From IMG/VR virus record IMGVR_UViG_2663763227_000012: a DNA stretch of 20,074 nucleotides. The stretch is one strand, 5' to 3'. The DNA is from a virus. Taxonomy: Duplodnaviria > Heunggongvirae > Uroviricota > Caudoviricetes. The stretch's first letter is position 1, and each line of letters starts with the position of its first letter. Of the stretch, positions 1 to 14,158 are shown piece after piece. A program made the translations under genes and the position numbers. The notes beneath the pieces were generated by a model. That model was given only the letters and a program-made list of their open reading frames with translations. It did no database searches and was not told where the DNA came from.

Positions 1-57
1 TACCAATAACGGCGAGTAAGTAGTACGCATCTTACCTCTTTTTTAGAGATAACCATT

Positions 58-177
58 ATGACAATAGAAAAACACGAAAGAAGCACTAAGGATTTGGTGA
101 AAGCAGCAGTATCGGGATGGCTGGGCACTGCGCTTGAATTTTATGGATTTCAAGAGTCATGCGTGTTAACTATTTGA
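58..177 (+). pseudogene. Possible 5' fragment of a host transporter gene truncated at the prophage junction
   Basis: ATG at 58, 39 codons to TGA at 175-177 (MTIEKHERSTKDLVKAAVSGWLGTALEFYGFQESCVLTI). The GTALEFY segment resembles the N-terminal signature of MHS-type transporters, then the frame ends within a few codons. Below the 60-aa ORF-track cutoff; read by hand. Confidence 0.25.
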
Positions 178-188
178 TAAATATTAAA

Positions 189-1484
189 TTAATTTTTCAT
201 TGCTTCGTTATGGGGCATGGTTGGGGCAAACTCGCTTAACTGTGTATTTAACAAAGCTACCTGTGCATTATTGTTTTCAGACATCCATTTTCCGTATACC
301 TGAAATACCATTTGCGCATCTGCATGGCCCATCTGGTTTGCTATAAATGCCGGGTTAGCACCAGCTGTCAGCGACCAGCAGGCATAAGTATGTCTCGACT
401 GATATGATTTTCGATGGCGGAGTCCGGCACGTTTTATCGCTGCGTCCCACATCTGCCTTATTGAGTCAACGGTAAAATGGTCACCATAATTTTTTACTCT
501 CGCTGACACTTCAGGTTGAAAAACAAAGGTGCATTTTTGTTTTTCTGTTCTGCCATACTCTCTGAGGTGAACATCAATGATATGCTCTTTGCTCAGTCTC
601 GTTAATGTCATCTGACTCCGGAGAGCGTCGATTGCTGGCTTAATAAGATGAATGACCCGATTGGTTCCCGCCTGTGTTTTTGGTACCGTGAAACGGTCTT
701 TTGCTAAATTTCTCCTGATCATCATTGTTCCATTTTTCAGATCTATGTCCTCCCATCCAAGTGCACACAGCTCACCAGGGCGAACTCCAGTATAAACAGA
801 AACACACCATAAATTTTTTGCTTGCTGATTTCTGCACGCATCGATAAGACGGATAAATTCTTCCCGCGAAAGAGGATCCGGAATGGTTCTTGATTCCTTT
901 AATGGCGAGATCCCCTTAAACGGATTATCTGCCAGGTAACCGTTATCAACACCAAACTGGAACACGGCGTTAAGATTTGTCATGTAATTATTTACAGTTA
1001 CAGCCGATCTCCCTGGTTGTGTAACAATATAGTTACTTTTGGGGATCTGGTATCCAGTCAGTAACTCTTTACGAACCTCCAGTAATTTTTCTTTATTAAT
1101 CGATGAGGCAAGATTTTTTTCACCGATTATGCTCAGGATATTTTTGATGACGGCACGGTATGTGTTGAGTGATGTTTTGGCGACTTCAGTTTCTTTCAGT
1201 GCCAGAAATTTTTCAGCCAGTTCTTTTATGGTTAAATCTTGTCGGGCCTCACCAAATTTTTCCAGATTGCGTGAGGAGGGAAACTGTTTTGCATAGTCGA
1301 AAACACCAGTTTTTATTGCGTAACAAACAGAGGAGCGTAGTTCACCTGCAACGCGCCTGTTTTTTGCTGTGTCAGGAACCCCCAGATTTTCCCTGACTCT
1401 TACGTCTTTATAAACAAACCAGATACGTAATTTCCCTCCATGGTTTTCCACGCCTGTCGGATATTTCATTTCAACTTCTCTCAT
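189..1484 (-). CDS. int: Phage tyrosine integrase (site-specific recombinase)
   Basis: 431-aa ORF with a C-terminal catalytic region containing R..H..R..H..Y-type residues (LRHRKSYQSRHTYACW). Sits at the prophage edge next to an excisionase-like gene. Confidence 0.9.
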   Translation of the reverse strand: MREVEMKYPTGVENHGGKLRIWFVYKDVRVRENLGVPDTAKNRRVAGELRSSVCYAIKTGVFDYAKQFPSSRNLEKFGEARQDLTIKELAEKFLALKETEVAKTSLNTYRAVIKNILSIIGEKNLASSINKEKLLEVRKELLTGYQIPKSNYIVTQPGRSAVTVNNYMTNLNAVFQFGVDNGYLADNPFKGISPLKESRTIPDPLSREEFIRLIDACRNQQAKNLWCVSVYTGVRPGELCALGWEDIDLKNGTMMIRRNLAKDRFTVPKTQAGTNRVIHLIKPAIDALRSQMTLTRLSKEHIIDVHLREYGRTEKQKCTFVFQPEVSARVKNYGDHFTVDSIRQMWDAAIKRAGLRHRKSYQSRHTYACWSLTAGANPAFIANQMGHADAQMVFQVYGKWMSENNNAQVALLNTQLSEFAPTMPHNEAMKN

Positions 1485-1503
1485 TAGTTAGTGTGGTTTT
1501 TAG

Positions 1504-1755
1504 TCAAGTAAGATGACGTCTTGGTCTCGCTGATGCCTGGCGCTCAATCCAGCGATCAATTTCTTCCAGGTTGTAAAAGCATGGACTGTTATCCCATGGC
1601 ATACCGTCATGAGCGACATGCTTATATTCCCTTCCTTCCATAAACGATTTTTCCCGGGCCTTTTTTAACGTACCTTTTTTTATTCCTTTCAGCGCAATTA
1701 ACTGCTCTTCGGATACCCATTTGCCGGGAGAGACAATCATGATTACTTCGCTCAT
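1504..1755 (-). CDS. xis: Excisionase-like small DNA-binding protein
   Basis: 83-aa basic ORF immediately upstream of int on the same strand, the usual lambdoid xis position. Start codon uncertain (alternative internal Met). Confidence 0.55.
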   Translation of the reverse strand: MSEVIMIVSPGKWVSEEQLIALKGIKKGTLKKAREKSFMEGREYKHVAHDGMPWDNSPCFYNLEEIDRWIERQASARPRRHLT

Positions 1756-1827
1756 CGATTTCTTTATCTCTTACATCAGACGAGCGCCGGTTGCAGAATA
1801 CCAGTCACAACCGGCGACAGTTGAACA

Positions 1828-4299
1828 TTAAGAATCAGCCTGACTCGGGATCAGTTTTTGCCAGATAACTGAAACGTATTTTGCCTGGTAACGGGCGTCA
1901 TCAAGTGCATTATGGCGCTCACCTTCGAATGGAATAGCCGTTCTGGCATCGAAGTCTATGGCTTTCCCCAGCTCAACGATTGTGCGTACATCGCGATCGT
2001 TGTAGTAACGCCACGGGCAGGGGATCCCCTGCCGTTCGTATGAACGGCGCAAAATCGTGTTGTCGAAGTTGGCTCCATTTCCCCAAACCTGAACAAAAAA
2101 TTCACCGGAGTTTTCGTCGATAAATTCTCGCAATTGTAACAGTGCATCATCTAACGGGATTTCATCGGTCATAATGGCAGATTGCGCTTCGCGTGATTGC
2201 TTAAGCCACCATTTAATGGTGTCCCGATCAATGACTCCGCCAGCAGTTTCCAGATCGATAGTCTTACTAAATTCCGGTCCCATATCTCCGGTTTGCGGAT
2301 CGAAAAATATTGCACCTATTGAGATGATCGGGGCATCAGGATTTTTTCCCATGGTTTCAAGGTCGATCATTAGATGGTCACACGTCCTGCTGGTGGATGT
2401 GATTTCGTGATGACCGTTCACCTTAATTGGGTGATCTGCCGTCTCGCCAGTTTCATTATCGCTATTGTGATGCTGATTGCCGCCAGTGTTCTCCTTGTGT
2501 GGATGTTCAGCGCCTTCCATTTCCTCCGGATCATCTTCCTGAACTTCAACCTGATACTCTTCATCGAATGTTTCTTGGTATGTTGCGTCGCCCATCACCG
2601 CGCCACAATCAGGGCAGTTGCCGCCGCCGGTCTGACCGCAGGCGGTGCAGACTTTTTCCACTTCCTGTTGCGCTACTGGTTCAGGCTGTTTCGTTTCTGG
2701 CTCGTTTTGTAACGCATTTGGACTGTTTTGTTCCGCTTTTTGGTAGTTCCGTTCCGATTCATGCTGGTTCTGGTTCACAGAATCGCGGGTCTGGAGCCCC
2801 TTAACCCATTTCGGATCATTCGGGTCACTAATCCCTTCAACAAATTCACCACGTGATGCAGCAAGCAACTTATCGGCGTCAGGCTGGCTGATATTGGCTG
2901 CCTGCATAATTTTGTTTACTTCGTCAGCGGTAACTTTTATCGGCTCTGGTTGTTCTGAATCTTCAGCGGTATCTACATTTTGCGGTAAGCCCGTGTATGT
3001 GCCATTTTTTCGGGCAAAATATTCTTCTTTTGTGATTTCAGTGGCGCCAGCAGCCAGTGCCTTATCCAGACCAGAGAGTTTGTTTGCGCGACCGTATTTT
3101 TCTCCGTCCTTATCTGCGAAGAGGAAATAGAACGGCCCCTCACGCTCTACAGATGGTTCAGCTTCCGGCGCGGTTTCATTTTTTGGGATATCAGATACCT
3201 CAGTTTCCACTGCATCAGTTTGTGTTTCTGATGACTGGAGAACATCAACAGTGCCCAGGTCTGTTTCTTCATTCTCAAACACGCCCTTTGTCGTCAGGTA
3301 TTCGCAGATATATTTGTTCAGTGCTACGGGATCTTTGTGAATGTCGATCGGACGCTCACGGACAAGGCCAAAAATAGTTTGGCGGTCGTAGCGAAGGGCA
3401 TCAGGCTGTTTGCGCATTGATGCCGAGATACGCTTCCAGTCTTCGCGGTCGTTGTCGATAACTTCTTTTTTTGCCCAGCGATGGATGCTGCCGTCAATGT
3501 TTCCGGCATCCACATCACTAGGCCAGAGAGCGTAGGCCAGTTCGTCATCCAGTGTTTTCCATGTCTGCTTGTATTCGCGATGAATGGCAGCAATGACCGG
3601 GCTGATTTTTCCTGTTGAATTTTCAGTGTACTGTTGATTGGCTCTGGCGCGGGCGAGATCAACAACAGACGTGTATTTTCCGGTTTCCTTGCGTTCACCT
3701 TCGCGACGTTTTTTCCAGATGCGCATCTCTGCCTGAATTTCGGGCCATTTGGCACCAGGCTTACATTTATGCTTAACCCACCCGATGGCATGCAGCTTAA
3801 GCTCCGGATACATGGCGTTAACTTCTGGCATTTTCATCAACGCTTCAACGATATGTCCGTCGAATGTTGCCATGTCTTCCTGCAACAATTCCTGCGCGCT
3901 AATCACCATATCAACGGTGATGTTTTCACATGTGTCGAACTTAACCATGACAGCGTTCTGTACTTCAGGGGCCAGCTTGTCAAAAGTGACGTTCATCGGA
4001 TCGGATTCAGTCTCAACCGGGACAAAAGAAGCAGACTCCTCATCCCAGCGGTTTTCCTGCATATATTCAGCATCCCATGAATCGAGGGCAGGGCGGGGTA
4101 TGCCAGGTTTATCCTCGCAGACAATAAATTTATAAGCGCAGTCCTGAGCAGCCGGATAATGTTCCAGGAATTGCCAGTGAAATTTTGCTCGAGCACGGCG
4201 TTCGTCGCCAGCTTCAATGGCTGTGGCTACAGCCACAGCGCCTTCTTCCCTTGTTGCCAGTTCGTCAGGAATAGCGGCGCAAATAAAGACTTTACTCAT
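1828..4299 (-). CDS. Large prophage protein with C-terminal DnaQ-like DEDDh 3'-5' exonuclease domain and a CxxC-x7-CxxC zinc ribbon
   Basis: ORF 1828..4335 (track starts at a TTG); I prefer the ATG at 4299 (MSKVFICAAIPDE...), which has a GAGG about 10 nt upstream. Exo I (MIDLETMG), Exo II (VWGNGANFD) and Exo III (HNALDDARY) motifs lie in the last ~185 aa (nt ~1831-2390). Zinc ribbon VCTACGQTGGGNCPDCG at nt ~2599-2655. N-terminus resembles the K-12 Qin ydfE fragment from memory. Confidence 0.75.
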   Translation of the reverse strand: MSKVFICAAIPDELATREEGAVAVATAIEAGDERRARAKFHWQFLEHYPAAQDCAYKFIVCEDKPGIPRPALDSWDAEYMQENRWDEESASFVPVETESDPMNVTFDKLAPEVQNAVMVKFDTCENITVDMVISAQELLQEDMATFDGHIVEALMKMPEVNAMYPELKLHAIGWVKHKCKPGAKWPEIQAEMRIWKKRREGERKETGKYTSVVDLARARANQQYTENSTGKISPVIAAIHREYKQTWKTLDDELAYALWPSDVDAGNIDGSIHRWAKKEVIDNDREDWKRISASMRKQPDALRYDRQTIFGLVRERPIDIHKDPVALNKYICEYLTTKGVFENEETDLGTVDVLQSSETQTDAVETEVSDIPKNETAPEAEPSVEREGPFYFLFADKDGEKYGRANKLSGLDKALAAGATEITKEEYFARKNGTYTGLPQNVDTAEDSEQPEPIKVTADEVNKIMQAANISQPDADKLLAASRGEFVEGISDPNDPKWVKGLQTRDSVNQNQHESERNYQKAEQNSPNALQNEPETKQPEPVAQQEVEKVCTACGQTGGGNCPDCGAVMGDATYQETFDEEYQVEVQEDDPEEMEGAEHPHKENTGGNQHHNSDNETGETADHPIKVNGHHEITSTSRTCDHLMIDLETMGKNPDAPIISIGAIFFDPQTGDMGPEFSKTIDLETAGGVIDRDTIKWWLKQSREAQSAIMTDEIPLDDALLQLREFIDENSGEFFVQVWGNGANFDNTILRRSYERQGIPCPWRYYNDRDVRTIVELGKAIDFDARTAIPFEGERHNALDDARYQAKYVSVIWQKLIPSQADS

Positions 4300-4391
4300 T
4301 TGTTTTAACCTCATGACAGATTTAAGGATGAACAAATCCCTGCCATTGTTGGCATATAAGAATGAAACCGGATATTTATTACGGAACTGTT

Positions 4392-4583
4392 TTAAAGACC
4401 TGCCGGGATTTCGATATTATCCTGGTGAATAACTTTATCGACCGGGTAACAGTTACCGGGAATTTTCTGTTCGGTTGCTGCAGTCATACACTCCTGCATT
4501 GTCCTGTGAACACTGACTGCAATATCAACTGGCTCTCCGGAAACAAGAAAAACTGTCAGAACAAGCACAAATGCTGAATTCAT
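4392..4583 (-). CDS. ydfD: YdfD-like small secreted/membrane lysis protein
   Basis: 63 aa from internal Met (MNSAFVLVLTVFLVSGEPVD...), hydrophobic N-terminus. Overlaps the dicB stop by 4 nt; matches Qin YdfD as recalled. Confidence 0.8.
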   Translation of the reverse strand: MNSAFVLVLTVFLVSGEPVDIAVSVHRTMQECMTAATEQKIPGNCYPVDKVIHQDNIEIPAGL

Positions 4584-4768
4584 TGTGCACATCCTTTTGG
4601 CATCAGACGTAAACGAGCCAGCATTGAAACAATGCATATTTTATTTAATAGCTCCCGTTCTTGTTTTCTCTTGTTAATGGCATCTTCAGTAAATACTGGG
4701 TTACTGATAGTGACACCAATTTCAAAACAACCTTCAGACGTATTAACGTTTGGTAATAACGTTTTCAT
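4580..4768 (-). CDS. dicB: Cell-division inhibitor DicB
   Basis: 62 aa from internal Met of the 97-aa ORF (MKTLLPNVNTSEGCFEIGVTISNPVFTEDAINKRKQERELLNKICIVSMLARLRLMPKGCAQ). Sequence and position match DicB. Confidence 0.85.
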   Translation of the reverse strand: MKTLLPNVNTSEGCFEIGVTISNPVFTEDAINKRKQERELLNKICIVSMLARLRLMPKGCAQ

Positions 4769-4937
4769 TATCGCGTCCTCAACAATGAATTTTGTGATGC
4801 AGTGCCTGGTGCCTCCAGGTGACGTTAACCAGTTAACAATTAACGCCGGATACAGAGAATCCACCCATAACACTGTTTTTGGTTTTAACTGTTCCGCGTG
4901 CGCTTAGCCGCATTCACTGCATCACAAAATTCACTTT

Positions 4938-4995
4938 AAAAAGGGCGGCAGAGCAGTCACGGAGTAAAACTGATACCGCCAAACGTCACCAGAAA
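4938..4995 (-). ncRNA. dicF: DicF small regulatory RNA (ftsZ-targeting sRNA)
   Basis: Reverse complement of 4938-4995 reads TTTCTGGTGACGTTTGGCGGTATCAGTTTTACTCCGTGACTGCTCTGCCGCCCTTTTT, the DicF sequence with its terminal GC stem and U-tail. Lies between ydfC and dicB as in Qin. Confidence 0.85.
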
Positions 4996-5335
4996 ATTGA
5001 TAACAGAGGGCGTTGCAGCGGGGTTGTCACTTAAGCGTATGGTCAACCTGACAACCCGGTGTCCTCAACGGGGAAGGAATAACCCCGCCATACTTACCGC
5101 CGCGCCATTTCGCGGGTTGCCACAACCGGAAGCGCACGGTCGACGAAAATTTAACGACAGGCTATCTATGAACCAGCTACCTCGCCGTGCGCTTTCGCGT
5201 TATGGTCTGACTTTTCAGGGAAATATCCTTTCAGTAAACTGTCAGTTCCGGATGCGCACCCGTGTCCGGCGCACGCACTCCACCTCACCCGTGGAGAACT
5301 CCTTAATTACTAACCTTAGCTTTGTTGATTAGCTA

Positions 5336-5554
5336 CTAACGCGGGTATGTAATCATTCTGGCAATGCTTAATGCCGCTGCTTTTTCCAGATTGGTGATAT
5401 CCTGCTCCAGAGCGGACAGATTTTCAGCCTGCTTAGCCCTGGCTTCATTGGCCCATTTCAGATCCTGCGCTGCATTAATTTTCTGGCGCATCCACTCATA
5501 AAGTTCATCATCGGTATAGTCTGGCGCGATGATGACGGGTTCTCGTTTCTGCAT
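5336..5554 (-). CDS. ydfC: YdfC-like small protein of the dicB operon
   Basis: 72-aa ORF (MQKREPVIIAPDYTDDELYEWMRQKINAAQDLKWANEARAK...), same strand and order as the Qin dicB operon. Confidence 0.75.
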   Translation of the reverse strand: MQKREPVIIAPDYTDDELYEWMRQKINAAQDLKWANEARAKQAENLSALEQDITNLEKAAALSIARMITYPR

Positions 5555-5583
5555 ACTGATTCCTCGCGGTGCTGTTTCGCTTA

Positions 5584-5712
5584 TCAGCCGTTAGATTTTG
5601 CCGAACTGGAAAGCGCCTGTTTAAACTCACTGAAGCTGAGAGCTTCTTCGCCTTCGGCAAGGCCTTCGAAGTATTCTTCGTAAGCCTTTTCCATGATTGT
5701 GTCGAAATCCAT
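5584..5712 (-). CDS. ydfB: YdfB-like small acidic protein
   Basis: Hand-translated 42-aa ORF (MDFDTIMEKAYEEYFEGLAEGEEALSFSEFKQALSSSAKSNG), below the track cutoff. The track ORFs 5508..5717 and 5569..5766 overlap it in other frames. Confidence 0.7.
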   Translation of the reverse strand: MDFDTIMEKAYEEYFEGLAEGEEALSFSEFKQALSSSAKSNG

Positions 5713-5713
5713 A

Positions 5714-5869
5714 TCACTCACCTGAGTTTCTTTCCAGCCAGCGACGGGCACCATTTTCGGTTTTAAACGTTTTGCTTTTGGTATACGTCATTGCGGTGAA
5801 CGTGCCGTCCTGGTTTGGAAACACGCCGTACACCAGAGATTCGTTGTTGCCAAGATCGATAGTATCCAT
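5714..5869 (-). CDS. ydfA: YdfA-like small protein
   Basis: 51 aa from internal Met of ORF 5714..5947 (MDTIDLGNNESLVYGVFPNQDGTFTAMTYTKSKTFKTENGARRWLERNSGE). First gene after the promoter region downstream of dicA. Confidence 0.7.
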   Translation of the reverse strand: MDTIDLGNNESLVYGVFPNQDGTFTAMTYTKSKTFKTENGARRWLERNSGE

Positions 5870-5949
5870 GCTGACCTCATTTCCCCTTAACGCTGGGGTA
5901 GCGGAACTGTTTGCTGAGAACACCGTGCGGTGTGTTGATGCAAACAAGA

Positions 5950-6035
5950 TTAGCCATGACTAACATATCGGTCAAGTGATTTTGTATGCTATAGCTAACA
6001 TAATTGATGTGGTAAAAGATAACTCATTGATGATG
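5950..6035 (-). promoter_or_regulatory. Candidate promoter/operator region of the dicB operon
   Basis: Intergenic between the dicA stop (6036) and the ydfA start (5869). Contains TGACTAACAT (5957-5966) and TAGCTAACAT (5992-6001), related to the palindromes in the dicA-dicC intergenic region, plus a hairpin AGATAAC-N11-GTTATCT (6017-6041) overlapping the dicA stop. Confidence 0.35.
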
Positions 6036-6443
6036 TTATCTTTTATTTGTCCGCTGACGGGCTTTTAGTAATTCTTCAAAGAGTTTATTGAAGTTTTTTA
6101 CTCGAGCTCGCATTTCGGCGAGCTGGGTATCCTGTTCTGATTCTGGCAGTGCATTAAACAGCTCAAGGAGCTCTAGTTCTTTGGGGGATAAGGCAACTGG
6201 CTTCTCAACAGGTGGTGTTGGTTGCTTGTCTTCATCGCCAAATAGAATCCATGTTGGTGAGCATTGCAATACTTTGCTGAGGGCAAAAAGGTTCTTCCCT
6301 GTAGGTTCACTATCACCCCGTTCCCATTGTGATACAGACACATGGGAGATTTTCAGGGCTTTAGCAAGAGACCTTTGGGTGTGTTTGAGGTTTTTCCGAC
6401 GATACCTGATGCGTTCGCCGATAGTTAAATTTTTTGTTTCCAT
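6036..6443 (-). CDS. dicA: Prophage repressor DicA (HTH_XRE, c2/cI-like)
   Basis: 135-aa ORF (METKNLTIGERIRYRRKNLKHTQRSLAKALKISHVSVSQWERGDSEPT...) with an N-terminal HTH, divergent from dicC. Confidence 0.9.
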   Translation of the reverse strand: METKNLTIGERIRYRRKNLKHTQRSLAKALKISHVSVSQWERGDSEPTGKNLFALSKVLQCSPTWILFGDEDKQPTPPVEKPVALSPKELELLELFNALPESEQDTQLAEMRARVKNFNKLFEELLKARQRTNKR

Positions 6444-6526
6444 AGTTAGCTAATGCTAAATCGTATTGACTATGTTTTTGTTAACATCTATCTTGTTAGT
6501 TATGACTAACAATAAAGGTGTTTTAA
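6444..6526. promoter_or_regulatory. Divergent dicA/dicC promoter-operator region
   Basis: 83-bp intergenic region with palindrome TTAGCTAA (6446-6453) and a perfect 8-bp inverted repeat TTGTTAGT-tatg-ACTAACAA (6493-6512), plus a TTGACT hexamer near 6469. Confidence 0.55.
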
Positions 6527-6757
6527 ATGCTTAAAACTGACGCTCTTTTGTATTTCGGTTCAAAAACAAAACTTGCACAAGCAGCAGGTATTCGTTTGGC
6601 TTCGCTTTATAGCTGGAAAGGGGATTTAGTTCCCGAAGGTCGCGCGATGCGTCTACAGGAGGCATCTGGCGGGGAGCTTCAGTATGATCCCAAAGTTTAT
6701 GATGAATATCGTAAGACGAAGCGGGCGGGGCGGTTGAACAATGAAAATCACTCCTGA
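6527..6757 (+). CDS. dicC: Cro-like regulator DicC
   Basis: 76-aa ORF (MLKTDALLYFGSKTKLAQAAGIRLASLYSWKGDLVPEGRAMRLQEASGGELQYDPKVYDEYRKTKRAGRLNNENHS), divergent from dicA. Confidence 0.85.
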   Translation: MLKTDALLYFGSKTKLAQAAGIRLASLYSWKGDLVPEGRAMRLQEASGGELQYDPKVYDEYRKTKRAGRLNNENHS

Positions 6758-7262
6758 ACAGGCTCGTGAGGCTCTGGATGCCTGGATATGTCGACCAGGA
6801 ATGACACAGGAGCAGGCGACGATATTAATCACTGAAGCATTCTGGGCTTTGAAAGAGCGCCCGAACATCGATGTTCAGCGTGTCACATATGAAGGTGGCG
6901 CGATTGATCAGCGAGCGCTTGGCGTTAATCGAGTGAAGATATTTGAACGCTGGAAGGCTATCGACACCAGGGATAAGCGTGAAAAGTTCACGGCGCTAGT
7001 GCCTGCAATTATGGAGGCTATCCGGATTAATGATTTCAGGTTGTATCGTGAAATTACTGACGGAAAAAGCATCACGTGCATGATCGCCGGGTTAAACAAA
7101 GAATATGGCGATGTGGTGGAGTCCGGACTGCTTTTTGCTGATCCTGCCGTAGTGGATCGTGAAACTGACGAACTTATAGAAAAAGCAATTGCTTTCAAAC
7201 TTGCGTATCGACAGCAATACCAACAAAAAGCTGGATGGAATTATGAGCCTTCTTTTTGCTGA
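6741..7262 (+). CDS. YdaT-like early protein (CII-position regulator family)
   Basis: 173-aa ORF overlapping the dicC 3' end. The central segment (ERWKAIDTRDKREKFTALVPAIMEAI) resembles the conserved core of Rac YdaT as recalled. Confidence 0.6.
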   Translation: MKITPEQAREALDAWICRPGMTQEQATILITEAFWALKERPNIDVQRVTYEGGAIDQRALGVNRVKIFERWKAIDTRDKREKFTALVPAIMEAIRINDFRLYREITDGKSITCMIAGLNKEYGDVVESGLLFADPAVVDRETDELIEKAIAFKLAYRQQYQQKAGWNYEPSFC

Positions 7263-8208
7263 ACGCCCACTGGTTATAAACACGCAGCTGGCAATGAAAA
7301 TTGGCTTAAACGAAGCCATTGTTTTGCAACAACTGCACTACTGGTTGAGAGATACCAACTCCGGCATGGAATGTGATGGTGTTCGCTGGATTTATAACAC
7401 AACGGAACAATGGCTGGAACAGTTCCCATTCTGGTCAGAGTCAACGTTAAAGCGCGCGTTTGCAAGTCTGAAAACGCTGGGGCTTTTGCGTTGTGAAAAG
7501 CTCAATAAATCAAAGCGCGATATGACCAATTTCTACACGATCAACTATGGGAGCGAGCTTTTAGATGGTGGCAAATTGAGCGAATCCATCGGTTCAAAAT
7601 GCGCCGCTCCATCAGGTCAAAATGACACGATGGAAGAGGTCAAAATGAAACGCTCCATTGGTTCAAAACGACCCAATGTCATCGGGTCAAAATGGCCTGA
7701 TGATCTTACAGAGAATACAACAGAGATTACTACAGAGAATAAAAACACTTTTCGTCCGGAAGCTTCGCAACCGGACCCGCAGACGACTGAACAGGATTTT
7801 TTAACCCGGAACTCCGACGCGGTTGTGTTTAGTGCGAAAAAACGCCAGTGGGGTAGCAGGGAGGATTTGGCGTGTGCGCAGTGGATCTGGGGGCGGATCG
7901 TGGGTCTCTACGAACAGGCAGCCAGTGATGATGGCGAGATCATGCGACCAAAAGAGCCTAACTGGACTGCCTGGGCCAATGACGTGCGCACAATGCGGAT
8001 GCTGGATGGCAGAAGCCACAGACAAATTTGCGAAATGTTTGGTCGGGTTCAGCGAGATCCATTCTGGGTAAAAAACATCATGAGCCCGTCAAAGCTCCGC
8101 GAAAAATGGGACGAACTGGTCATCCGCCTGGGACGTTCACCTGTACAGCGTTGTGTTAATCATATTTCTGAACCGGATACAGAAATTCCGCCTGGTTTCA
8201 GAGGATAA
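7243..8208 (+). CDS. Phage replication initiator / replisome-organizer-like protein (O-like)
   Basis: ORF 7189..8208; I prefer the ATG at 7243 (MSLLFAERPLVINTQLAMKIGLNEAIVLQQLHYWLRD...), which gives a winged-helix-like N-terminal domain. Internal iteron array and position after the cro/cII-like genes support an initiator role. Confidence 0.6.
   Translation: MSLLFAERPLVINTQLAMKIGLNEAIVLQQLHYWLRDTNSGMECDGVRWIYNTTEQWLEQFPFWSESTLKRAFASLKTLGLLRCEKLNKSKRDMTNFYTINYGSELLDGGKLSESIGSKCAAPSGQNDTMEEVKMKRSIGSKRPNVIGSKWPDDLTENTTEITTENKNTFRPEASQPDPQTTEQDFLTRNSDAVVFSAKKRQWGSREDLACAQWIWGRIVGLYEQAASDDGEIMRPKEPNWTAWANDVRTMRMLDGRSHRQICEMFGRVQRDPFWVKNIMSPSKLREKWDELVIRLGRSPVQRCVNHISEPDTEIPPGFRG
7588..7694 (+). 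repeat. Five direct iteron-like repeats (consensus ~ATCGGGTCAAAATG) at ~23-bp spacing, candidate ori
   Basis: Copies at 7588-7601, 7611-7624, 7636-7647, 7657-7670 and 7681-7694 inside the initiator gene (seen as repeated IGSK in the protein). Confidence 0.55.
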
Positions 8209-8248
8209 GTGTTGATTTCAGGTCATGAGGTAATTTTAAGGGGGACTT

Positions 8249-8671
8249 GTGGCAAAAGTTTTTACACAAGAAGAGCGGGAAAAAATTAAATGGCAGGTGG
8301 TGGAACTCGTGCGCCAGAGCGGCCGTGAGACGTTACGGCAACTGGAAGCTAAAACAGGTGCGACTAGATATCTGATGAGCGTTCTTGCCAGAGAGCTGGT
8401 AGCCAGTGGCGATGTATACAACTCCGGCTACGGGTTATTCCCCTCTGAACAGGCGCGTAAGGACTGGCAAAACGCCCGCAAAAAACTCTCGAGGGCAAAG
8501 GTGAAGAAACCTGCTGTGGTTGATCCGGACCTTATCTGGTCATCACCTGACGGAGAAATACGTCGCTACGACAGTCGCCTAAACATAATCTGTCGCGAGT
8601 GCCGGAAGAGCGAAGTTATGCAGCGCATACTGGCTTTCTATCAGGGTAATTTTCAGGACGTGGCGCAGTGA
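8249..8671 (+). CDS. Hypothetical prophage protein, possible HTH
   Basis: 140-aa ORF with GTG start at 8249 preceded by GGGGG. Segment ETLRQLEAKTGATRYLMSVLARELV looks HTH-like. Stop overlaps the next gene's GTG start (GTGA at 8668-8671). Confidence 0.5.
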   Translation: MAKVFTQEEREKIKWQVVELVRQSGRETLRQLEAKTGATRYLMSVLARELVASGDVYNSGYGLFPSEQARKDWQNARKKLSRAKVKKPAVVDPDLIWSSPDGEIRRYDSRLNIICRECRKSEVMQRILAFYQGNFQDVAQ

Positions 8672-9024
8672 GTGCACCGGCAACCATTCTTGATATGTGC
8701 TGTGGCAGCCGCATGTTCTGGTTCGATAAGTCTGACGAACGGGCGATATTCAGCGATATCAGAAAAGAAGGATACACATTACGCAATGGGAGACGCTTGA
8801 TTATCAGCCCTGACATTATCGCAGATTTTCGTGCATTATCATTTGCAGACGCATCTTTTTCGATGGTTGTATTAGACCCTCCGCATCTTGAGAGTGTTGG
8901 TGATAACGCCTGGATGGGAAAGAAATATGGACGGCTGAATAAAGATGCCTGGCGTGATGATTCGCGACAGAGATTTAAAGAAGCCTTTCGGGTGTTGAGG
9001 CCGCACGGCGTTCTGATTTTTTAA
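8668..9024 (+). CDS. N6-adenine DNA methyltransferase-like protein, short and probably truncated
   Basis: 118 aa with SAM motif I-like DMCCGS and motif IV DPPH (VVLDPPHL), plus a RVLRPHGVLIF strand typical of class I MTases. Too short for a complete MTase fold; the frame stays open 30 codons past the TAA at 9022-9024. Confidence 0.55.
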   Translation: MSAPATILDMCCGSRMFWFDKSDERAIFSDIRKEGYTLRNGRRLIISPDIIADFRALSFADASFSMVVLDPPHLESVGDNAWMGKKYGRLNKDAWRDDSRQRFKEAFRVLRPHGVLIF

Positions 9025-10137
9025 TGGAATGAAACGCAAATACCGGTAAGCCAGATTCTGGCACTGACAGACAGAAAACCTGTTATCTGTCAACGAACAG
9101 GGAAAAAACGATAAAACCCACTGGATTATTTTTATGAAAGAGGCATCCAGTGAGTAGATTCGTAAGGCTACAGATACGTATATCTGAATAATTAAATTCA
9201 GTTCTGTAAATAAAATTTAATCCTTAACCGGATGGATTTCTGCACCCTCAGAACATCAGGAGGCCGCCCGAAAGGGCGGTAGTGAAATGCGAAAGTTCAA
9301 AATTATTATTGAAACGGGAATAGCTGGTGGAGATTTTGAGGATGTATTCGAAGTGGACGATGACGCAACACCTGAGGAAATTCATGACGGAGCATAAGAA
9401 ATTTTCTTTAACTACTGCAATTACTCATACCACGAAATAAAAGACGATGAGGAAGAACAAAGTGGCTGATTTTTGTTCAGCTAAATATAACATCAGTTTT
9501 GAAGAGCGGGATGAACTATTAATGGACTATGGTGAGTTACGCGGTGGAAGTGCTGCTGATGTCGAATCCTAGCGTGATGACTATGAAGCGGGAAAAACTC
9601 CGGTCGAAGCATATTGTGATGAGTGGGGCGATGAATGAGCGAGATTAATTATCAGGAAGGGCATGAAACGGCGGGGCAAGCAAAACCAGTGGCATGGCGA
9701 TATCGCTACGTGAAAAAAGGCGTTACGGACTTTCAGGGGAAGTAGTGGTCTGGTGACTGGAAATATGTACCGAAAAAAGAGGATTGTAACGACAGGCCGA
9801 ACTATCAAATTCAGGCCTTATTCACTGCCTCACCAGTCCCAGTTACATCAGAAGAACTGGTTAAAGCTGTGCACTTTTATGAACAACTAAAACGCGAAAA
9901 TCCACCAACATCCGGCAACTAGATTAATGGATTAACTATGTCGGTTAAACGACCAGCCAACTGAAAAAGCGGAAACCTGATTACAGGTTGCCAGATAAGG
10001 CAATGAGCTACCTGGCGCGGAACGGACTGATAAGTATGGGGAATGTTTTACGATGAACCTTTAGACTAAAGAGTTTGTAACGCTATGTAAGTGATTTTTT
10101 CTGGTTTAGATATTTATATGTCCGGCCAAATTGAGGT
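9025..10137. other. AT-rich decayed accessory segment with several gene-like frames each broken by an in-frame stop
   Basis: 9288-9470 (MRKFKIIIETGIAGGDFEDVFEVDDDATPEEIHDGA-TAA-EIFFNYCNYSYHEIKDDEEEQSG), 9490-9637 (in-frame TAG at 9569-9571) and 9635-9921 (MSEINYQEGHETAGQAKPVAWRYRYVKKGVTDFQGK-TAG-WSGDWKYVPKKEDC...). No ORF over 60 aa on the plus strand. Confidence 0.4.
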
Positions 10138-10176
10138 GTGTTTAAATGTAATTGCACATTGATTGTAGGAGGAATA

Positions 10177-10356
10177 ATGAAAAACGCATTGCAGTTTTTG
10201 TTTGTTGCGTTCTGGTTGTTCGCATCATGTATGCCCATCATCTTCACAGCAAGGTATATGGAAAAAGTTGATGTTTTGATATTAATATTTGGATATATAA
10301 ATGCCCTTTTTTTAGGGGTGTTCATGGCGGTCATGTGCATTGAATACTGGCGGTAA
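10177..10356 (+). CDS. Small hydrophobic (predicted two-TM) membrane protein
   Basis: 59 aa from ATG 10177 (MKNALQFLFVAFWLFASCMPIIFTARYMEKVDVLILIFGYINALFLGVFMAVMCIEYWR) with canonical AGGAGG 5 nt upstream. Lies in an AT-rich island. Confidence 0.45.
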   Translation: MKNALQFLFVAFWLFASCMPIIFTARYMEKVDVLILIFGYINALFLGVFMAVMCIEYWR

Positions 10357-10690
10357 ATACAGCGAACTCCATTGGTTTAGTTGGATATTTACTGTGCTGG
10401 ACAAAAACGGTTTGCGGGGAAATCTTAGTTAAGTAGAATGACTGCGGGTGCTTGAGGCTATCTGCCTCGGGCATGGACACCAACGGCAGATAGAGAAAAG
10501 CCCCAGTTAACATTACGCGTCCTGCAAGACGCTTAACATTAATCTGAGGCCAATTTCATGCTAGACACATGTAGGTTAGCCTCTTACGTGCCGAAAGGCA
10601 CGGAGAAGCAGGCTATTGTTAACACCAAGCTGTAATGTCCCCTTTGAACCATTCTAAAATGTCCCCAGACAATTCTCTGGGGGATTTTTC

Positions 10691-12004
10691 ATGATCAAAG
10701 AGACTGTTACGATGAGTCATAAGGAACTCCACCGACTTCAGATTATTCAGGAACAAGCTGCGGCACGCATTGGCATTTCTATTCGGCAGGTTAAACGTCT
10801 GGTGCAACGGTATAGAAATGAAGGGCCTTCTGGTCTGGTTTCCCACCGACGTGGAAAGCGTCCTAATAATTCCTTTTCTACTGAATTCAGAGCAACAGTA
10901 ATTTCACTCCTCAAAGGCCGTTACGCTGATTTTGGACCTACGTTTGCGTGCGAAAAATTGCGCGAGATACACGGTTTATCTTTATCCGTTGAAACTCTCA
11001 GAAAGTGGATGATAGAAGAGGGGTTATGGCGTGAACGCCGTCGTAAAATTGCCCGTATATATCAACGCCGCATGCGACGACCATCTTACGGTGAACTGAT
11101 CCAGATTGATGGCTCACCTCATGACTGGTTTGAAAATCGAGGCCCCAGATGTACACTGATCGTTTTCATTGATGATGCCACCAGTGCGTTGATGGCGTTG
11201 CGTTTTGTGCCTGCTGAAACAACCCGGGCTTACATGGAAACCCTCCGGGGTTACCTTAATGATCATGGCGTACCGCTCGCTCTCTACTCTGATAGACACA
11301 GTATATTCAGGGTAAATAACCCAGAGCGGGAAGGTGAGCTGACCCAGTTCACTCGTGCGATAAAGACACTGGGCATCGAGCCAATCCATGCCAACAGCCC
11401 GCAGGCAAAAGGGCGGGTAGAGCGCGCCAATCAGACACTACAGGACAGGCTGGTCAAAGAAATGCGGCTTCAGAATATCAGTGATATTGAAACAGCAAAT
11501 GCATGGTTGCCGACCTTTATTGAAGCCTATAACAACCGGTTCGCTACGTCGCCTCGTACTACTGATAATGCTCATCTTGATGTGCACCATTCTGAAGAGG
11601 AACTGGGTTATATCTTCAGCCTACAGGCGAAGCGCGTTCTGTCTAAAAATCTCACTTTCCAGTACAAAAGCAGTGCGTTTCAGGTACGCAGTGAGGGCCG
11701 GGGATATCGACTTAGGCATTCGGTTGTTACTGTATGCGAGAACTTTGACGGTGAAATTAACGTTCTGTATGACGGGAAAGCGCTGGGCTGGGAAAAGTAT
11801 GTTGATGGCCCGGAGCCTATACCACTGGATGATGAAAAGAGTGTCCATGAACGAGTGGATAATGCCCGTATTGATTTACGCTCAAAATACTATGTTAAAC
11901 CTAAAGCTGACCATCCCTGGCTTACGCGCCGAACGCAAAGTCATCAGCAAGTTAAGCCCCCGAAGTTACCTAAAAAGAAGCCTGATCCCGATAAAAAAGA
12001 TTGA
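10691..12004 (+). CDS. DDE transposase/integrase-core (rve) protein with N-terminal HTH, IS481/ISNCY-like
   Basis: 437-aa ORF: N-terminal HTH (IGISIRQVKRLVQRY), then an rve-type catalytic core (IQIDGSPHDW...TLIVFIDDATS...GRVERANQTLQD) and a basic C-terminal tail. Element boundaries not resolved. Confidence 0.8.
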   Translation: MIKETVTMSHKELHRLQIIQEQAAARIGISIRQVKRLVQRYRNEGPSGLVSHRRGKRPNNSFSTEFRATVISLLKGRYADFGPTFACEKLREIHGLSLSVETLRKWMIEEGLWRERRRKIARIYQRRMRRPSYGELIQIDGSPHDWFENRGPRCTLIVFIDDATSALMALRFVPAETTRAYMETLRGYLNDHGVPLALYSDRHSIFRVNNPEREGELTQFTRAIKTLGIEPIHANSPQAKGRVERANQTLQDRLVKEMRLQNISDIETANAWLPTFIEAYNNRFATSPRTTDNAHLDVHHSEEELGYIFSLQAKRVLSKNLTFQYKSSAFQVRSEGRGYRLRHSVVTVCENFDGEINVLYDGKALGWEKYVDGPEPIPLDDEKSVHERVDNARIDLRSKYYVKPKADHPWLTRRTQSHQQVKPPKLPKKKPDPDKKD

Positions 12005-12399
12005 AACCAAGATCGATTCGGTTGAGTGCATATCCATTCATAGGGTAGATTCTTAAGTCGCGTTTCTGGTGTTCATTTTCGGGTGGTTTGTTACTTGTTT
12101 TACCGGGGATATGCCAGAAACGCGCTGAGTCAGTCTGGGCGGTGCGCGTAATGAGGCGTTATGGTAAATAGCCTATGCTAATGTCCGCTAAGAGCAAGAA
12201 GCGGAAGTTGGCAGTTTTGTGGACTGTCCCCACAAAAGTGACTACAGAAATAGTTGCAATTCATAATTGATCATGGGTTGTCAGTTAAACTCGTGGCGAT
12301 TTAAATAGACTAATTGGGAGTGCGTCCATTACTTATATCTTGTAATGTTAACTATCAGAAATGATACAAAGATAATATGTCTTTAAAGAAAAGGCTGAT

Positions 12400-12427
12400 G
12401 GCGAAAAGTGGCCCGATGAGGGCCACA
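12400..12427 (-). terminator. Intrinsic terminator downstream of flxA
   Basis: Hairpin GTGGCCC-gatgag-GGCCAC (12408-12426) followed on the minus strand by a T-run. Confidence 0.5.
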
Positions 12428-12440
12428 ATACGGCTGTCAC

Positions 12441-12773
12441 TTAGACGTAAATATCAATGGTGCCAGCGGTATTTGTATCGTCTTTTTTCTCTTCTTTTTT
12501 ATCAGGCTGAACTGTCGCGTCTTCATTCTTTTTCTCTGCCTGCTGCCTTAACAACTGCTCCAGTTGAGCCCAGAGGCTTTCAATTTGCTTTTGTACCAAT
12601 GCAGCCATTTCTTTTTTCTGCTGTGTCGTCATCCCCTCTTCCGATGAGATTTTCCCAAGCTTTTCAGTCAGCACCTGAATTTGTCTTGTGATTTTGGCTA
12701 TTTCTGATGTTCCTTCCGGGGCGGAGTTGTTTGAAATAACGGTTGAGGTATTTCCCTGAATTGTGACAGACAT
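12441..12773 (-). CDS. flxA: FlxA (sigma-28-dependent Qin prophage protein)
   Basis: 110-aa ORF (MSVTIQGNTSTVISNNSAPEGTSEIAKITRQIQVLTEKLGKISSEEGMTTQQKKEMAALVQKQIESLWAQLEQLL...) matching FlxA as recalled. Confidence 0.85.
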   Translation of the reverse strand: MSVTIQGNTSTVISNNSAPEGTSEIAKITRQIQVLTEKLGKISSEEGMTTQQKKEMAALVQKQIESLWAQLEQLLRQQAEKKNEDATVQPDKKEEKKDDTNTAGTIDIYV

Positions 12774-12796
12774 AGATTTCTCCTTTTAAAAAAACA

Positions 12797-12824
12797 CTAT
12801 CGGCATGCACAAAAAAATCTTTAA
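12797..12824 (-). promoter_or_regulatory. Sigma-28 (FliA) class-3 promoter for flxA
   Basis: Minus strand reads TTAAAG-N15-GCCGATA (-35 at 12819-12824, -10 at 12798-12804), close to the FliA consensus TAAA-N15-GCCGATAA, about 25 nt upstream of the flxA start. Confidence 0.6.
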
Positions 12825-12975
12825 TCGTATTTCTTGTGTCATTAATTGTTTGATGTTCAGATTGTTTTCCTCGCGGGCTGGCGCGCCTCAGAAAGTAAAG
12901 CTTGTTGACAGGGGTAAACGTTCGGCAATAATTTTCTGCCGCATGCGGGTGTTGCATAAAACGTGTTACGTTCCT

Positions 12976-13281
12976 TTATCGACAGGTCAGGTCACCGCTC
13001 ACCCGCCGACGAGAAAGCAACACTGACATGCTAAAGCAAAAAATAGATGAATAAGTTGAGTTGTGCATATGTAGCCTGACCGTCACAAAGTATATGGTGT
13101 CTGTACCAGTAAGATGATGGCCGGACTCTTTAAAAACGAGCTGACCTGCACAATACAGGATGGACTTAGCAATGGCTGCTCCTGGCACAAAGCGGACAGT
13201 GATCACCGTTCTTACGACTACTTTCTGACTTCCTTCGTGACTTGCCCTAAGCATGTTGTAGTGCGATACTTGTAATGACAT
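12976..13281 (-). CDS. ydfV: YdfV-like hypothetical protein
   Basis: 101-aa ORF between flxA and relB, same position and length as Qin ydfV. Unusual composition, so it may not be a real protein. Confidence 0.45.
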   Translation of the reverse strand: MSLQVSHYNMLRASHEGSQKVVVRTVITVRFVPGAAIAKSILYCAGQLVFKESGHHLTGTDTIYFVTVRLHMHNSTYSSIFCFSMSVLLSRRRVSGDLTCR

Positions 13282-13294
13282 TTGTAATTACAAG
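13269..13294 (+). promoter_or_regulatory. relO-like operator in the relBE promoter
   Basis: CTTGTAAT-gacat-TTGTAATTACAAG: inverted and direct TTGTAAT hexads immediately upstream of the relB start. Confidence 0.6.
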
Positions 13295-13305
13295 AGGTGT
13301 AAGAC

Positions 13306-13545
13306 ATGGGTAGCATTAACCTGCGTATTGACGATGAACTTAAAGCGCGTTCTTACGCCGCGCTTGAAAAAATGGGTGTAACTCCTTCTGAAGCGCTTCG
13401 TCTCATGCTCGAGTATATCGCTGACAATGAACGCTTGCCGTTCAAACAGACACTCCTGAGTGATGAAGATGCTGAACTTGTGGAGGTAGTGAAAGAACGG
13501 CTTCGTAATCCTAAGCCAGTACGTGTGACGCTGGATGAACTCTGA
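13306..13545 (+). CDS. relB: RelB antitoxin
   Basis: 79-aa ORF (MGSINLRIDDELKARSYAALEKMGVTPSEALRLMLEYIADNERLPFKQTLLSDEDAELVEVVKERLRNPKPVRVTLDEL), near-identical to E. coli RelB as recalled. Confidence 0.9.
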   Translation: MGSINLRIDDELKARSYAALEKMGVTPSEALRLMLEYIADNERLPFKQTLLSDEDAELVEVVKERLRNPKPVRVTLDEL

Positions 13546-13832
13546 TGGCGTATTTTCTGGATTTTGACGAGCGGGCACTAAAGGAATGGCGAAAGCTGGG
13601 CTCGACGGTACGTGAACAGTTGAAAAAGAAGCTGGTTGAAGTACTTGAGTCACCCCGGATTGAAGCAAACAAGCTCCGTGGTATGCCTGATTGTTACAAG
13701 ATTAAGCTCCGGTCTTCAGGCTATCGCCTTGTATACCAGGTTATAGACGAGAAAGTTGTCGTTTTCGTGATTTCTGTTGGGAAAAGAGAACGCTCGGAAG
13801 TATATAGCGAGGCGGTCAAACGCATTCTCTGA
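13545..13832 (+). CDS. relE: RelE toxin (ribosome-dependent mRNA interferase)
   Basis: 95-aa ORF (MAYFLDFDERALKEWRKLGSTVREQLKKKLVEVLESPRIEANKLRGMPDCYKIKLRSSGYRLVYQVIDEKVVVFVISVGKRERSEVYSEAVKRIL). Start overlaps the relB stop (ATGA). Confidence 0.9.
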   Translation: MAYFLDFDERALKEWRKLGSTVREQLKKKLVEVLESPRIEANKLRGMPDCYKIKLRSSGYRLVYQVIDEKVVVFVISVGKRERSEVYSEAVKRIL

Positions 13833-13903
13833 ACCAAAGCATGACATCTCTGTTTCGCACCGAAGGTGACACTTCTGCTTTGCGTTGACAGGAGAAGCAG
13901 GCT

Positions 13904-14059: not shown

Positions 14060-14127
14060 GAGACCCGGCGGGGGAGAAATCCCTCGCCACCTCTGATGTG
14101 GCAGGCATCCTCAACGCACCCGCACTT

Positions 14128-14158
14128 AACCCGCTTCGGCGGGTTTTTGTTTTTATTT
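14128..14158 (+). terminator. Rho-independent terminator after hokD
   Basis: CCCGC-ttcg-GCGGG stem (14130-14143) followed by TTTTTGTTTTTATTTT. Confidence 0.7.

Follow-up and report, generated by a model that had tools for sequence, protein, structure and literature searches.

The window analysed here, a 20,074-nt stretch of DNA, carries on its minus strand, at positions 4392–5869, the genes ydfA, ydfB and ydfC, the small RNA DicF, and dicB and ydfD, uninterrupted and in the order known from Escherichia coli K-12. A preliminary description of this DNA, made from its letters, had claimed just such an intact operon in the order of the Qin prophage, and all six features were mapped by transferring the K-12 annotation through an ungapped alignment with MG1655. 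Positions 3533–7020 correspond, reversed, to MG1655 1647357–1650844 at 99.57% identity (blastn; 15 mismatches, 0 gaps); the window is colinear with MG1655 Qin at 99.6–99.9% identity, its prophage adjoins rspB, and the gene content at the locus is that annotated in K-12 and O55:H7. Each of YdfA, YdfB, YdfC, DicB and YdfD is 100% identical to its MG1655 counterpart. On this basis we regard the region, with little doubt, as the early-left (pL-type) dicBF operon of a lambdoid Qin prophage, and as such the operon is already known, well studied and ordinary.

The promoter-proximal part comprises ydfA (5714–5869; 51 aa; DUF1391, PF07151 at 98.5 bits), ydfB (5584–5712; 42 aa; no Pfam or NCBIfam family matched) and ydfC (5336–5554; 72 aa). 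The statement that several genes of the operon fall below 60 aa and escape the open reading frame (ORF) track applies to two products, YdfA and YdfB, but not to DicB (62 aa), YdfD (63 aa) or YdfC; in the mechanical ORF list only the ydfB ORF (56 aa) is shorter than 60 aa, those of ydfA, dicB and ydfD extending upstream to 77, 97 and 81 aa. Five nucleotides within 4392–5869 differ from K-12, namely 4905, 4918, 4919 and 5187, which are non-coding, and 5450, which is synonymous in ydfC; apart from this last, one lies in a loop and three preserve RNA pairs. The combination of window alleles at 4905, 4918 and 4919 was not found full-length in 5,426 complete E. coli genomes (the closest match reaching 98.8%), and we take it to reflect variation between strains or a patch of recombination, with nothing functional attached to it. 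The difference at 5187 changes a U·G pair of K-12 to C–G within a long hairpin of the ydfC–dicF spacer (5120–5206, minus strand), predicted in a single minimum-free-energy fold, which may contain the RNase III site (approximately 5128–5132) from which the 190-nt DicF precursor takes its 5′ end; both this 190-nt species and the 813/814 cut are published (PMC10448788).

The immunity region has the Qin-type layout, with dicA on the same strand as the operon, dicC divergent from it, and lambda-like operators. The repressor gene of dicBp, dicA (6036–6443, minus strand; 135 aa; NCBIfam DicA, 234 bits), carries one synonymous change from K-12, at 6276; dicC (6527–6757, plus strand; 76 aa; NCBIfam DicC, 159.5 bits; Pfam P22_Cro) encodes a Cro-like regulator, and rem (14276–14527, plus strand; 83 aa) the antirepressor that relieves DicA repression of dicBp (PMC10448788). 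DicA, DicC and Rem are all 100% identical to MG1655, and the DicA and DicC family scores, like that of DUF1391 for YdfA, lie well above their cut-offs. The operator pattern TTAGYYANKRCTAA has five matches in the window against 0.24 expected, among them TTAGCTAATGCTAA (6446–6459) and TTAGTTATGACTAA (6496–6509), which span 6446–6509 in the dicA–dicC intergenic region, where three lambda-like operators have been described (PMC10448788). A further match (5950–5963), read as TTAGTCATGGCTAA on the minus strand (5963–5950), overlaps a candidate dicBp (5947–5975, minus strand; −35 TTGACC at 5975–5970, 17-nt spacer, −10 TAATCT at 5952–5947), and the dicA–ydfA intergenic region that holds this operator and candidate promoter is without base differences from K-12. 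We infer the placement of dicBp by eye from these motifs and the overlapping operator; a consensus promoter scan called no minus-strand promoter at this position.

DicF (4943–4995, minus strand) is a 53-nt RNA with an intrinsic terminator hairpin and U-run. An alignment with K-12 had been suggested for DicF and DicB, and both proved 100% identical; for DicF all 53 bases match b1574, which bears out its description as the canonical sRNA, and against Rfam RF00039 it scores 76.7 bits (gathering score 48) over the full length of the model (1–52 of 52; E 1.1e-15). The ftsZ gene lies outside the window, as do the host genes minC, zipA, manYZ and ispG. That targeting of ftsZ should be retained, as had been predicted, is nevertheless a sound expectation, given the identity of DicF, the demonstration of DicF–ftsZ pairing in K-12 by compensatory mutations (PMC5069750), and an ftsZ region (−50 to +30) that is identical to the K-12 stretch in 5,327 of 5,425 complete E. 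coli genomes. Direct modelling of DicF with the ftsZ leader by RNAduplex was set aside as evidence, since it yielded an over-extended duplex whose energy was matched or beaten by 14 of 500 shuffles, a weak margin.

The division inhibitor gene dicB (4580–4768, minus strand) has a Shine–Dalgarno sequence, GAGGA, at 4781–4777, and its 62-aa MinC-dependent product matches PF05358 (136.8 bits, cut-off 27) and NF049927 (132.8 bits, cut-off 100) over residues 1–62 of 62; the open frame extends upstream to a GTG at 4873. Beyond it, ydfD (4392–4583, minus strand) encodes a 63-aa protein identical to b1576 (PF07358, DUF1482; 91.1 bits, cut-off 25). The preliminary description had called YdfD a lysis-type membrane protein; the literature has it as a lysis protein that binds IspG, not as an established membrane pore, with its lysis offset by DicB (PMC8835842). 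The two genes overlap by 4 nt, as had been noted, with the dicB stop codon (4582–4580) and the ydfD start codon (4583–4581) sharing the ATGA at 4583–4580; K-12 has the same arrangement (1649794–1649797), and an ATGA or GTGA overlap is kept in 35 of 36 dicB loci.

Translational coupling of dicB and ydfD would be a plausible consequence of this arrangement, suggested by the conserved overlap and by an AAGGA 8 nt before the ydfD ATG; the literature on the pair goes no further than to remark on a ‘partial overlap’ together with the offsetting of YdfD lysis by DicB (PMC8835842), in view of which it would be biologically sensible for the two proteins to be made in a fixed ratio. The overlap also persists in diverged ydfD variants, even where the start codon has changed to GTG, which speaks against its being nothing but compact phage gene packing with YdfD translated independently from its own Shine–Dalgarno sequence. 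That reading is a serious competitor, to which we give somewhat less than an even chance: the AAGGA, which lies within dicB, would allow ydfD to be initiated independently, the close relationship among the 36 loci makes conservation of the overlap weak evidence, and some phages have dicB without ydfD (matches to the PPompW phage end inside dicB).

Downstream of ydfD, a consensus scan found a weak terminator-like hairpin (4331–4354, minus strand; TGCCA-ACAA-TGGCA and a U-rich tail), with a further variant, 4349, in its loop; this hairpin would fit the published 1,608-nt ydfABC–dicFB–ydfD transcript (PMC10448788) if transcription starts at about 5941–5945. The next gene in the same early-left transcription unit (1828–4299, minus strand) is annotated ‘exonuclease’ in O55:H7 and is full-length here (823 aa, no internal stop; PF16473, 226.5 bits), whereas its K-12 counterpart is the IS2-truncated pseudogene ydfE; the Qin copy of the E. 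coli strain from which the window derives is less decayed than that of K-12. Elsewhere in the window, near a sok match (10446–10617), no intact hok ORF of at least 26 aa was found on the plus strand between 10300 and 10800.

The preliminary description made no mention of a folded RNA between dicF and dicB. This spacer (approximately 4785–4935, minus strand; in K-12, approximately 1649442–1649592 of NC_000913) folds into a pseudoknotted structure resembling STnc100/PasD, with P1 (4935–4915 with 4805–4785; 21 bp), P2 (4912–4895), P4 (4847–4821), P5 (4819–4805), and a pseudoknot between CAGUUAA (4891–4885) and the P4 loop. Its fold has an energy of −68.4 kcal/mol (z = −6.9), and against Rfam RF02076 it scores 36.2 bits (E 1.9e-6 in a search of 401 nt), below the gathering score of 47, its relatives scoring 33–43 bits. 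The structure is borne out by covariation across 54 phage homologues, which covers four helices and the pseudoknot: pairing is kept in 88.3% of cells against 38–44% with the partners slid, both sides have changed in 23 of the 37 pairs, and the covariation score is 0.442 against at most 0.124, with none of 500 shuffles reaching it. The window sequence obeys all five helices, and of its differences from K-12 those at 4918 and 4919 preserve P1 pairs and that at 4905 lies in the P2 loop. Judged on score, fold and covariation together, the dicF–dicB spacer appears to be a divergent, sub-threshold member of the STnc100/PasD (RF02076) family of prophage RNAs. Two other readings of the spacer were abandoned. 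A helix enclosing DicF (4917–4923 with 5014–5020), seen in a 351-nt minimum-free-energy fold, is replaced in the alignment and covariation by pairing with 4796–4804; and an analogy with the P1 immI c4–icd–ant system, raised by spacer matches in phages P7 and D6, fell away when the P7 match proved to lie in the ban/tRNA operon upstream of terB, not in immI.

Open frames do run through the spacer, both as the N-terminal extension in the 97-aa dicB frame from GTG 4873 and as a 26-aa ORF (4833–4913) in which the 4905 difference is synonymous, and a longer open frame around dicB was noted by Cam et al. (1988), as cited in PMC8835842. A protein-coding spacer is, however, very improbable: its homologues range from 108 to 146 nt, with a hypervariable middle and differences in length not divisible by three, compensatory substitutions run through four helices and the pseudoknot, and we reject the coding reading on these length differences and compensatory pairs. 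Moreover, the element is also found ahead of unrelated genes (kil, terB) or with no gene after it, and the title of Cam et al. (1988), again as cited in PMC8835842, has DicB translated from an internal ATG.

RNAs of this sub-type lie, in phages, a short way upstream of small toxic genes (dicB, kil). No terminator follows the spacer RNA; the dicB Shine–Dalgarno sequence begins 3 nt, and the AUG 16 nt, past the 3′ end of P1. When distances were measured from the end of the conserved core, a dicB, kil or terB start codon lay 14–40 nt downstream in 40 of 48 copies (30 dicB, 8 kil, 2 terB), whereas canonical STnc100 copies have no consistent downstream ORF, and a P1 of 20–22 bp occurs only in the dicB-linked copies. 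With the transcription start estimated at about 5941–5945, on which its placement relies, the 21-bp P1 would coincide with the RNase III end published for the 72-nt DicF. We tentatively propose, as a possibility that we rank below the probable, that the spacer, far from being a passive gap, belongs to a distinct, unannotated STnc100/PasD sub-family specialised as the leader that precedes genes of small toxic proteins (DicB, Kil, small membrane ORFs), and that in the dicB-linked copies the lengthening of P1 to about 21 bp has turned it into a substrate of RNase III. A cut in this helix would generate the 72-nt DicF and release the folded RNA, possibly to act in trans as an sRNA, while dicB–ydfD would keep a short leader of approximately 26 nt; RNase III would then gate how much lysis protein and division inhibitor is produced once transcription has passed the DicF terminator.

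The element could instead be a stand-alone, trans-acting, Hfq-dependent sRNA, as is reported for canonical STnc100 and PasD, merely co-transcribed and without a cis role in dicB expression. We consider this unlikely to a similar degree, though it draws on the architecture shared with STnc100, on canonical STnc100/PasD copies, which build up as separate RNA species in EHEC (PMC5331693) and are regarded as sRNAs that act by base pairing (bioRxiv 10.64898/2026.05.13.724894), and on the fragment of approximately 130 nt that would be freed if RNase III cut both strands of P1. Against it stand the lack of a terminator of its own in this sub-type, the close spacing to dicB, kil or terB start codons that canonical copies do not share, and the restriction of the long P1 to dicB-linked copies.

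Drawing on published work (PMC10448788, PMC5069750, PMC6832061, PMC8835842, PMC9438474), and attributing activities to this copy through its identity with K-12, we suggest that the operon would work as follows. DicA, a CI/C2-like repressor, would hold dicBp off until it is activated by Rem, the antirepressor of the prophage, or by a rare spontaneous switch. Much of the resulting polycistronic RNA would end at the DicF terminator and be trimmed by RNases III and E to 190-nt and 53-nt DicF, which with Hfq would pair with the ftsZ ribosome-binding site (and also with xylR, pykA and manX) and block translation. Transcripts that read through would carry the folded STnc100-like RNA, its 21-bp closing helix probably being an RNase III site that yields the 72-nt DicF, followed by dicB and ydfD. 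DicB, in complex with MinC, would be brought to ZipA at midcell, dismantling FtsZ rings, and by blocking ManYZ would exclude lambda-like phages; YdfD, whose translation would start inside the dicB stop codon, may inhibit IspG and lyse dividing cells, the division block imposed by DicB offsetting that lysis.

The operon itself, as first described, adds little: the annotation is right, but the cryptic-prophage operon that it describes is among the best studied, and a large fraction of E. coli genomes carry it. In K-12, derepression causes filamentation through DicF and DicB (PMC10448788), and if DicA repression were lifted in the strain from which the window derives, that strain should likewise filament, resist lambda-like phages through the action of DicB on ManYZ, and be prone to lysis by YdfD. 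The spacer RNA is worth more, as it may explain in structural terms the cut that RNase III has long been known to make 3′ of DicF, may connect STnc100/PasD, a poorly understood family, with the control of toxic small proteins encoded by phages, and lends itself to direct testing in K-12.

Of 5,426 complete E. coli genomes, 2,112 contain 80% or more of the operon, and the dicF–dicB–ydfD stretch also occurs in sequenced lambdoid phages. The closest known system is the dicBF operon of K-12 MG1655 Qin (b1571–b1576), which has the same order, the same site (beside rspB/ynfP), and products and regulators that are identical, with no base differences in the promoter/operator region and five silent ones in the operon. 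It differs in its downstream neighbours, which are intact in the window (the 823-aa exonuclease, xis and int) but carry an IS2E insertion in K-12, and in having lost 4.8 kb of replication-region DNA that the window retains. The lambdoid phages mEp460, PhiR42_1, HannyBb and vB_EcoS-813R8 carry DicF, the spacer element, dicB, ydfD, exonuclease, xis and int in the order of the window, at 95–99.5% identity over dicF–ydfD and with the module downstream of a DicA/C2-type repressor; in mEp460, the only one of these phages for which the gene neighbourhood was inspected, other small genes lie upstream in place of ydfABC, and the spacer helix has C–G/G–C pairs where the window has C–G/A–U and K-12 U·G/G·U.

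A more distant parallel is found in the pL operon of Stx and related lambdoid phages, in which a terminator hairpin resembling that of DicF, the same spacer element and kil lie upstream of the exonuclease gene and hold the place of DicF, spacer and dicB in Qin; the partner there is a different small protein, annotated Kil and taken as unrelated to DicB, whereas in Qin it is DicB with the overlapping ydfD. With STnc100/PasD the spacer RNA has in common P1, a P2 hairpin with a bulged A, P4, a P5 of the form CCNGG-AGGCA-CCNGG, the conserved junctions GGUGAAU and UCACC, and the pseudoknot in which the strand following P2 pairs with the P4 loop. P2 is fully swapped between the two (GCGGC/GCACGC in the spacer RNA, CCCCC/GGAGGGG in STnc100) and P1 is 21 bp as against 6–9 bp; and whereas STnc100/PasD stands alone, the spacer RNA, without a terminator of its own, is placed after the DicF terminator and before the start codon of dicB.

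Mapping of K-12 features onto the window places ydfA at 5714–5869, ydfB at 5584–5712, ydfC at 5336–5554, dicF at 4943–4995, dicB at 4580–4768 and ydfD at 4392–4583, all on the minus strand, and the limits of 4392–5869 given in the preliminary description match the mapped ends of ydfA and ydfD exactly. The K-12 alignment proposed there for DicF and DicB gave identity at 53/53 bases and at every residue, respectively; YdfA, YdfB, YdfC, YdfD, DicA and DicC are likewise residue-for-residue equal to K-12, and Rem (14276–14527) is identical to the K-12 antirepressor. DicF scores 76.7 bits in Rfam (gathering score 48), and DicB, DUF1482 (YdfD), DUF1391 (YdfA), DicA and DicC lie far over their Pfam and NCBIfam cut-offs. 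The operon differs from K-12 at five nucleotides, none at a position known as required: 5450 is synonymous in ydfC; 5187 turns a K-12 U.G pair into C-G in a predicted long hairpin (~5206–5120) that holds the RNase III site for the 190-nt DicF precursor (PMC10448788); 4918 and 4919 keep pairing in helix P1 of an RNA element between dicF and dicB (the spacer RNA, 4785–4935, minus strand), and 4905 is a variable position of its P2 loop. Since 5451–6275 shows zero differences from K-12, the dicA–ydfA intergenic region is unchanged. There we infer a candidate dicBp, the DicA-repressed operon promoter (TTGACC at 5975–5970, a 17-nt spacer and TAATCT at 5952–5947), at a site not called by a consensus promoter scan; the candidate is overlapped by the operator TTAGTCATGGCTAA (5963–5950), a motif with two further copies between dicA and dicC and five window matches against 0.24 expected.

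The ftsZ gene is located outside the window. That its targeting should be retained is a sound expectation, since DicF equals that of K-12, the K-12 ftsZ stretch from −50 to +30 is 100% identical in 5,327/5,425 complete E. coli genomes, and DicF–ftsZ pairing was proven via compensatory mutations (PMC5069750). The energy computed here for a DicF–ftsZ duplex was equalled or beaten by 14 of 500 shuffles and adds little to this. The operon is matched at least partially in 4,757 of 5,426 complete E. coli genomes, and to 80% or more in 2,112, at a median of two places per genome. It is a known system, correctly annotated: published work already covers the operon, how it is regulated and processed, and what DicF, DicB and YdfD do.

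The 4-nt overlap of dicB and ydfD is present as described, the ydfD ATG (4583–4581) and dicB TGA (4582–4580) forming ATGA, and K-12 has the same arrangement. An ATGA or GTGA overlap is kept in 35/36 dicB-bearing loci compared, including some with diverged ydfD variants and variants without an upstream in-frame ATG; this conservation also supports the annotated ydfD start, which has AAGGA 8 nt upstream. The literature notes the ‘partial overlap’ and describes YdfD as an IspG-binding protein whose lytic effect is prevented when DicB or SulA is co-expressed (PMC8835842). On these grounds translational coupling of dicB and ydfD appears plausible, with simple phage-style gene packing and independent initiation as a live rival.

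The window represents Qin prophage DNA from a strain of E. coli, reversed relative to MG1655. In blastn against NC_000913 1640000–1660000 it forms three colinear blocks (1–1348, 99.85%; 3533–7020, 99.57% with 15 mismatches and no gaps; 11820–19177, 99.9%), K-12 being without 1349–3532 and 7021–11819, and an O55:H7 chromosome, our source of annotation, is colinear with 1–19817 in a single piece (99.9%). The integrase (189–1469, 426 aa), excisionase (1504–1755, 83 aa) and full-length exonuclease (1828–4299, 823 aa, with a C-terminal 3′–5′ exonuclease domain), all on the minus strand, are intact, whereas K-12 Qin carries IS2E in place of 1349–3532, which disrupts or truncates these genes (189–4299), leaving ydfE and intQ as truncated pseudogenes. 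The 4.8 kb missing from K-12 Qin (7021–11819) hold, per the O55:H7 annotation, the remainder of a YdaT-family gene (start 6741), a hypothetical protein (‘primosomal protein I’ is the annotation of its mEp460 counterpart), DUF977 and a methyltransferase, along with two pseudogenes and part of an ISNCY transposase. A strong sok/hok Rfam match (104 bits, 10446–10617, plus strand) marks a second hok/sok-type locus in addition to hokD, probably a remnant, since a search of the plus strand over 10300–10800 gave no intact hok ORF and the ISNCY fragment begins ~95 nt past the match. Elsewhere, ydfU (DUF968; 14874–15923, plus strand) has a 1-nt deletion at 15871 relative to both K-12 and O55:H7, a frameshift near the 3′ end that costs the final 16 residues, and a cspA thermoregulator match (Rfam, 158.8 bits, 17462–17854, plus strand) falls where Qin has its cold-shock gene cspB with the leader. 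Substitutions relative to both chromosomes are concentrated in 3751–5450 (eight in the exonuclease gene at 3751–3904, others at 4349, 4905, 4918, 4919 and 5450), which points to a patch acquired by recombination from a different dicB-bearing prophage; no full-length exact match to the 86 nt at 4890–4975 was found among 5,426 complete E. coli genomes.

The preliminary description overlooked the structured spacer RNA, which emerged from blastn of dicF–ydfD against phage genomes. The whole module is present in the lambdoid phages PhiR42_1, HannyBb, mEp460 and others, and the dicF–dicB spacer alone matches Stx phages, an Actinobacillus phage, Klebsiella phages and the P1-like P7 and D6, in every case in unannotated DNA. 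The same sub-type stands directly upstream of kil in Stx phages and the Actinobacillus phage, and ahead of terB in P1-like phages (in P7, between tRNA genes and terB). With a relaxed Rfam threshold the segment is STnc100 (RF02076), at 36.2 bits in the window and 33–43 in relatives; all fall below the gathering score of 47, so that automatic annotation would never pick up the RNA. The STnc100 family consists of prophage sRNAs, has 11 copies in EHEC EDL933 (PMC5331693) and was lately connected with PasD (bioRxiv 10.64898/2026.05.13.724894); the papers found to mention it, these two included, do not place it in the dicBF operon. The spacer RNA, found also in K-12 (~1649442–1649592), is a divergent new sub-type of this family. 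In some viral contigs (L016 at 2331–3273, L029, L047, L086, L093, L097 and L115), canonical STnc100 copies stand in tandem as two or three units 220–920 nt apart, an uncommon arrangement for an sRNA that acts by simple base pairing.

Using the invariant P5 motif, at least 120 viral-contig stretches were gathered, and a hand-drawn structure (P1, a P2 hairpin with a bulged A, a pseudoknot of the post-P2 strand with the P4 loop, P4 and P5) was tested on a sequence-only alignment of 54 representatives. Standard pairs occupied 88.3% of cells, against 38–44% with partners slid 1–3 columns; the covariation score was 0.442, a value that 0/500 shuffles reached, whereas slid partners scored no higher than 0.124. 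P2 is wholly swapped between the canonical (CCCCC...GGAGGGG) and window (GCGGC...GCACGC) types, and the window copy conforms to each helix. An independent fold gave the same nested helices (−68.4 kcal/mol, z = −6.9). Protein coding as the reason for conservation is excluded, because copy lengths differ by non-multiples of three and the element has a hypervariable central part. The K-12 differences at 4905, 4918 and 4919 fit the modelled structure, the pairs at 4919/4918 being C-G/A-U in the window, U.G/G.U in K-12 and C-G/G-C in mEp460.

P1 is an unbroken 21-bp helix in the window and K-12 (4935–4915 with 4805–4785). According to PMC5069750 and PMC9438474, citing Faubladier 1990, a 72-nt DicF arises when RNase III processes the full-length dicBF RNA; its 3′ end would fall at 4924, mid 5′ strand of P1. 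Given a transcription start estimated at ~5941–5945 from the published 813/814 cut and 190-nt species, the 1,146-nt ydfABC–dicF RNA (PMC10448788) would end at 4796–4800, in the 3′ strand of P1, and the 1,608-nt RNA at ~4334–4338, just past a weak terminator-like hairpin (4354–4341); we infer these matches from published lengths, not mapped ends. Among the 48 window-type copies listed, a start codon of dicB (30), kil (8) or terB (2) lies 14–40 nt past the conserved core, which serves as end mark, in 40, and a DicF-like terminator precedes the element in 33; no consistent downstream ORF follows the 92 canonical copies listed. Our reading, held with rather low confidence, is that the sub-type acts as a processing module and leader for small toxic proteins; alternatively, it may be a trans-acting sRNA co-transcribed with the operon, or an RNase III site and no more. 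The spacer RNA is a modest lead that lends itself to direct testing, in K-12 too. The window-type sub-family alone, among the copies listed, has a P1 of 20–22 bp (11/25 distinct copies, these being dicB-linked where checked), and the 21-bp P1 of the window spacer RNA contrasts with the 6–9 bp of canonical STnc100.
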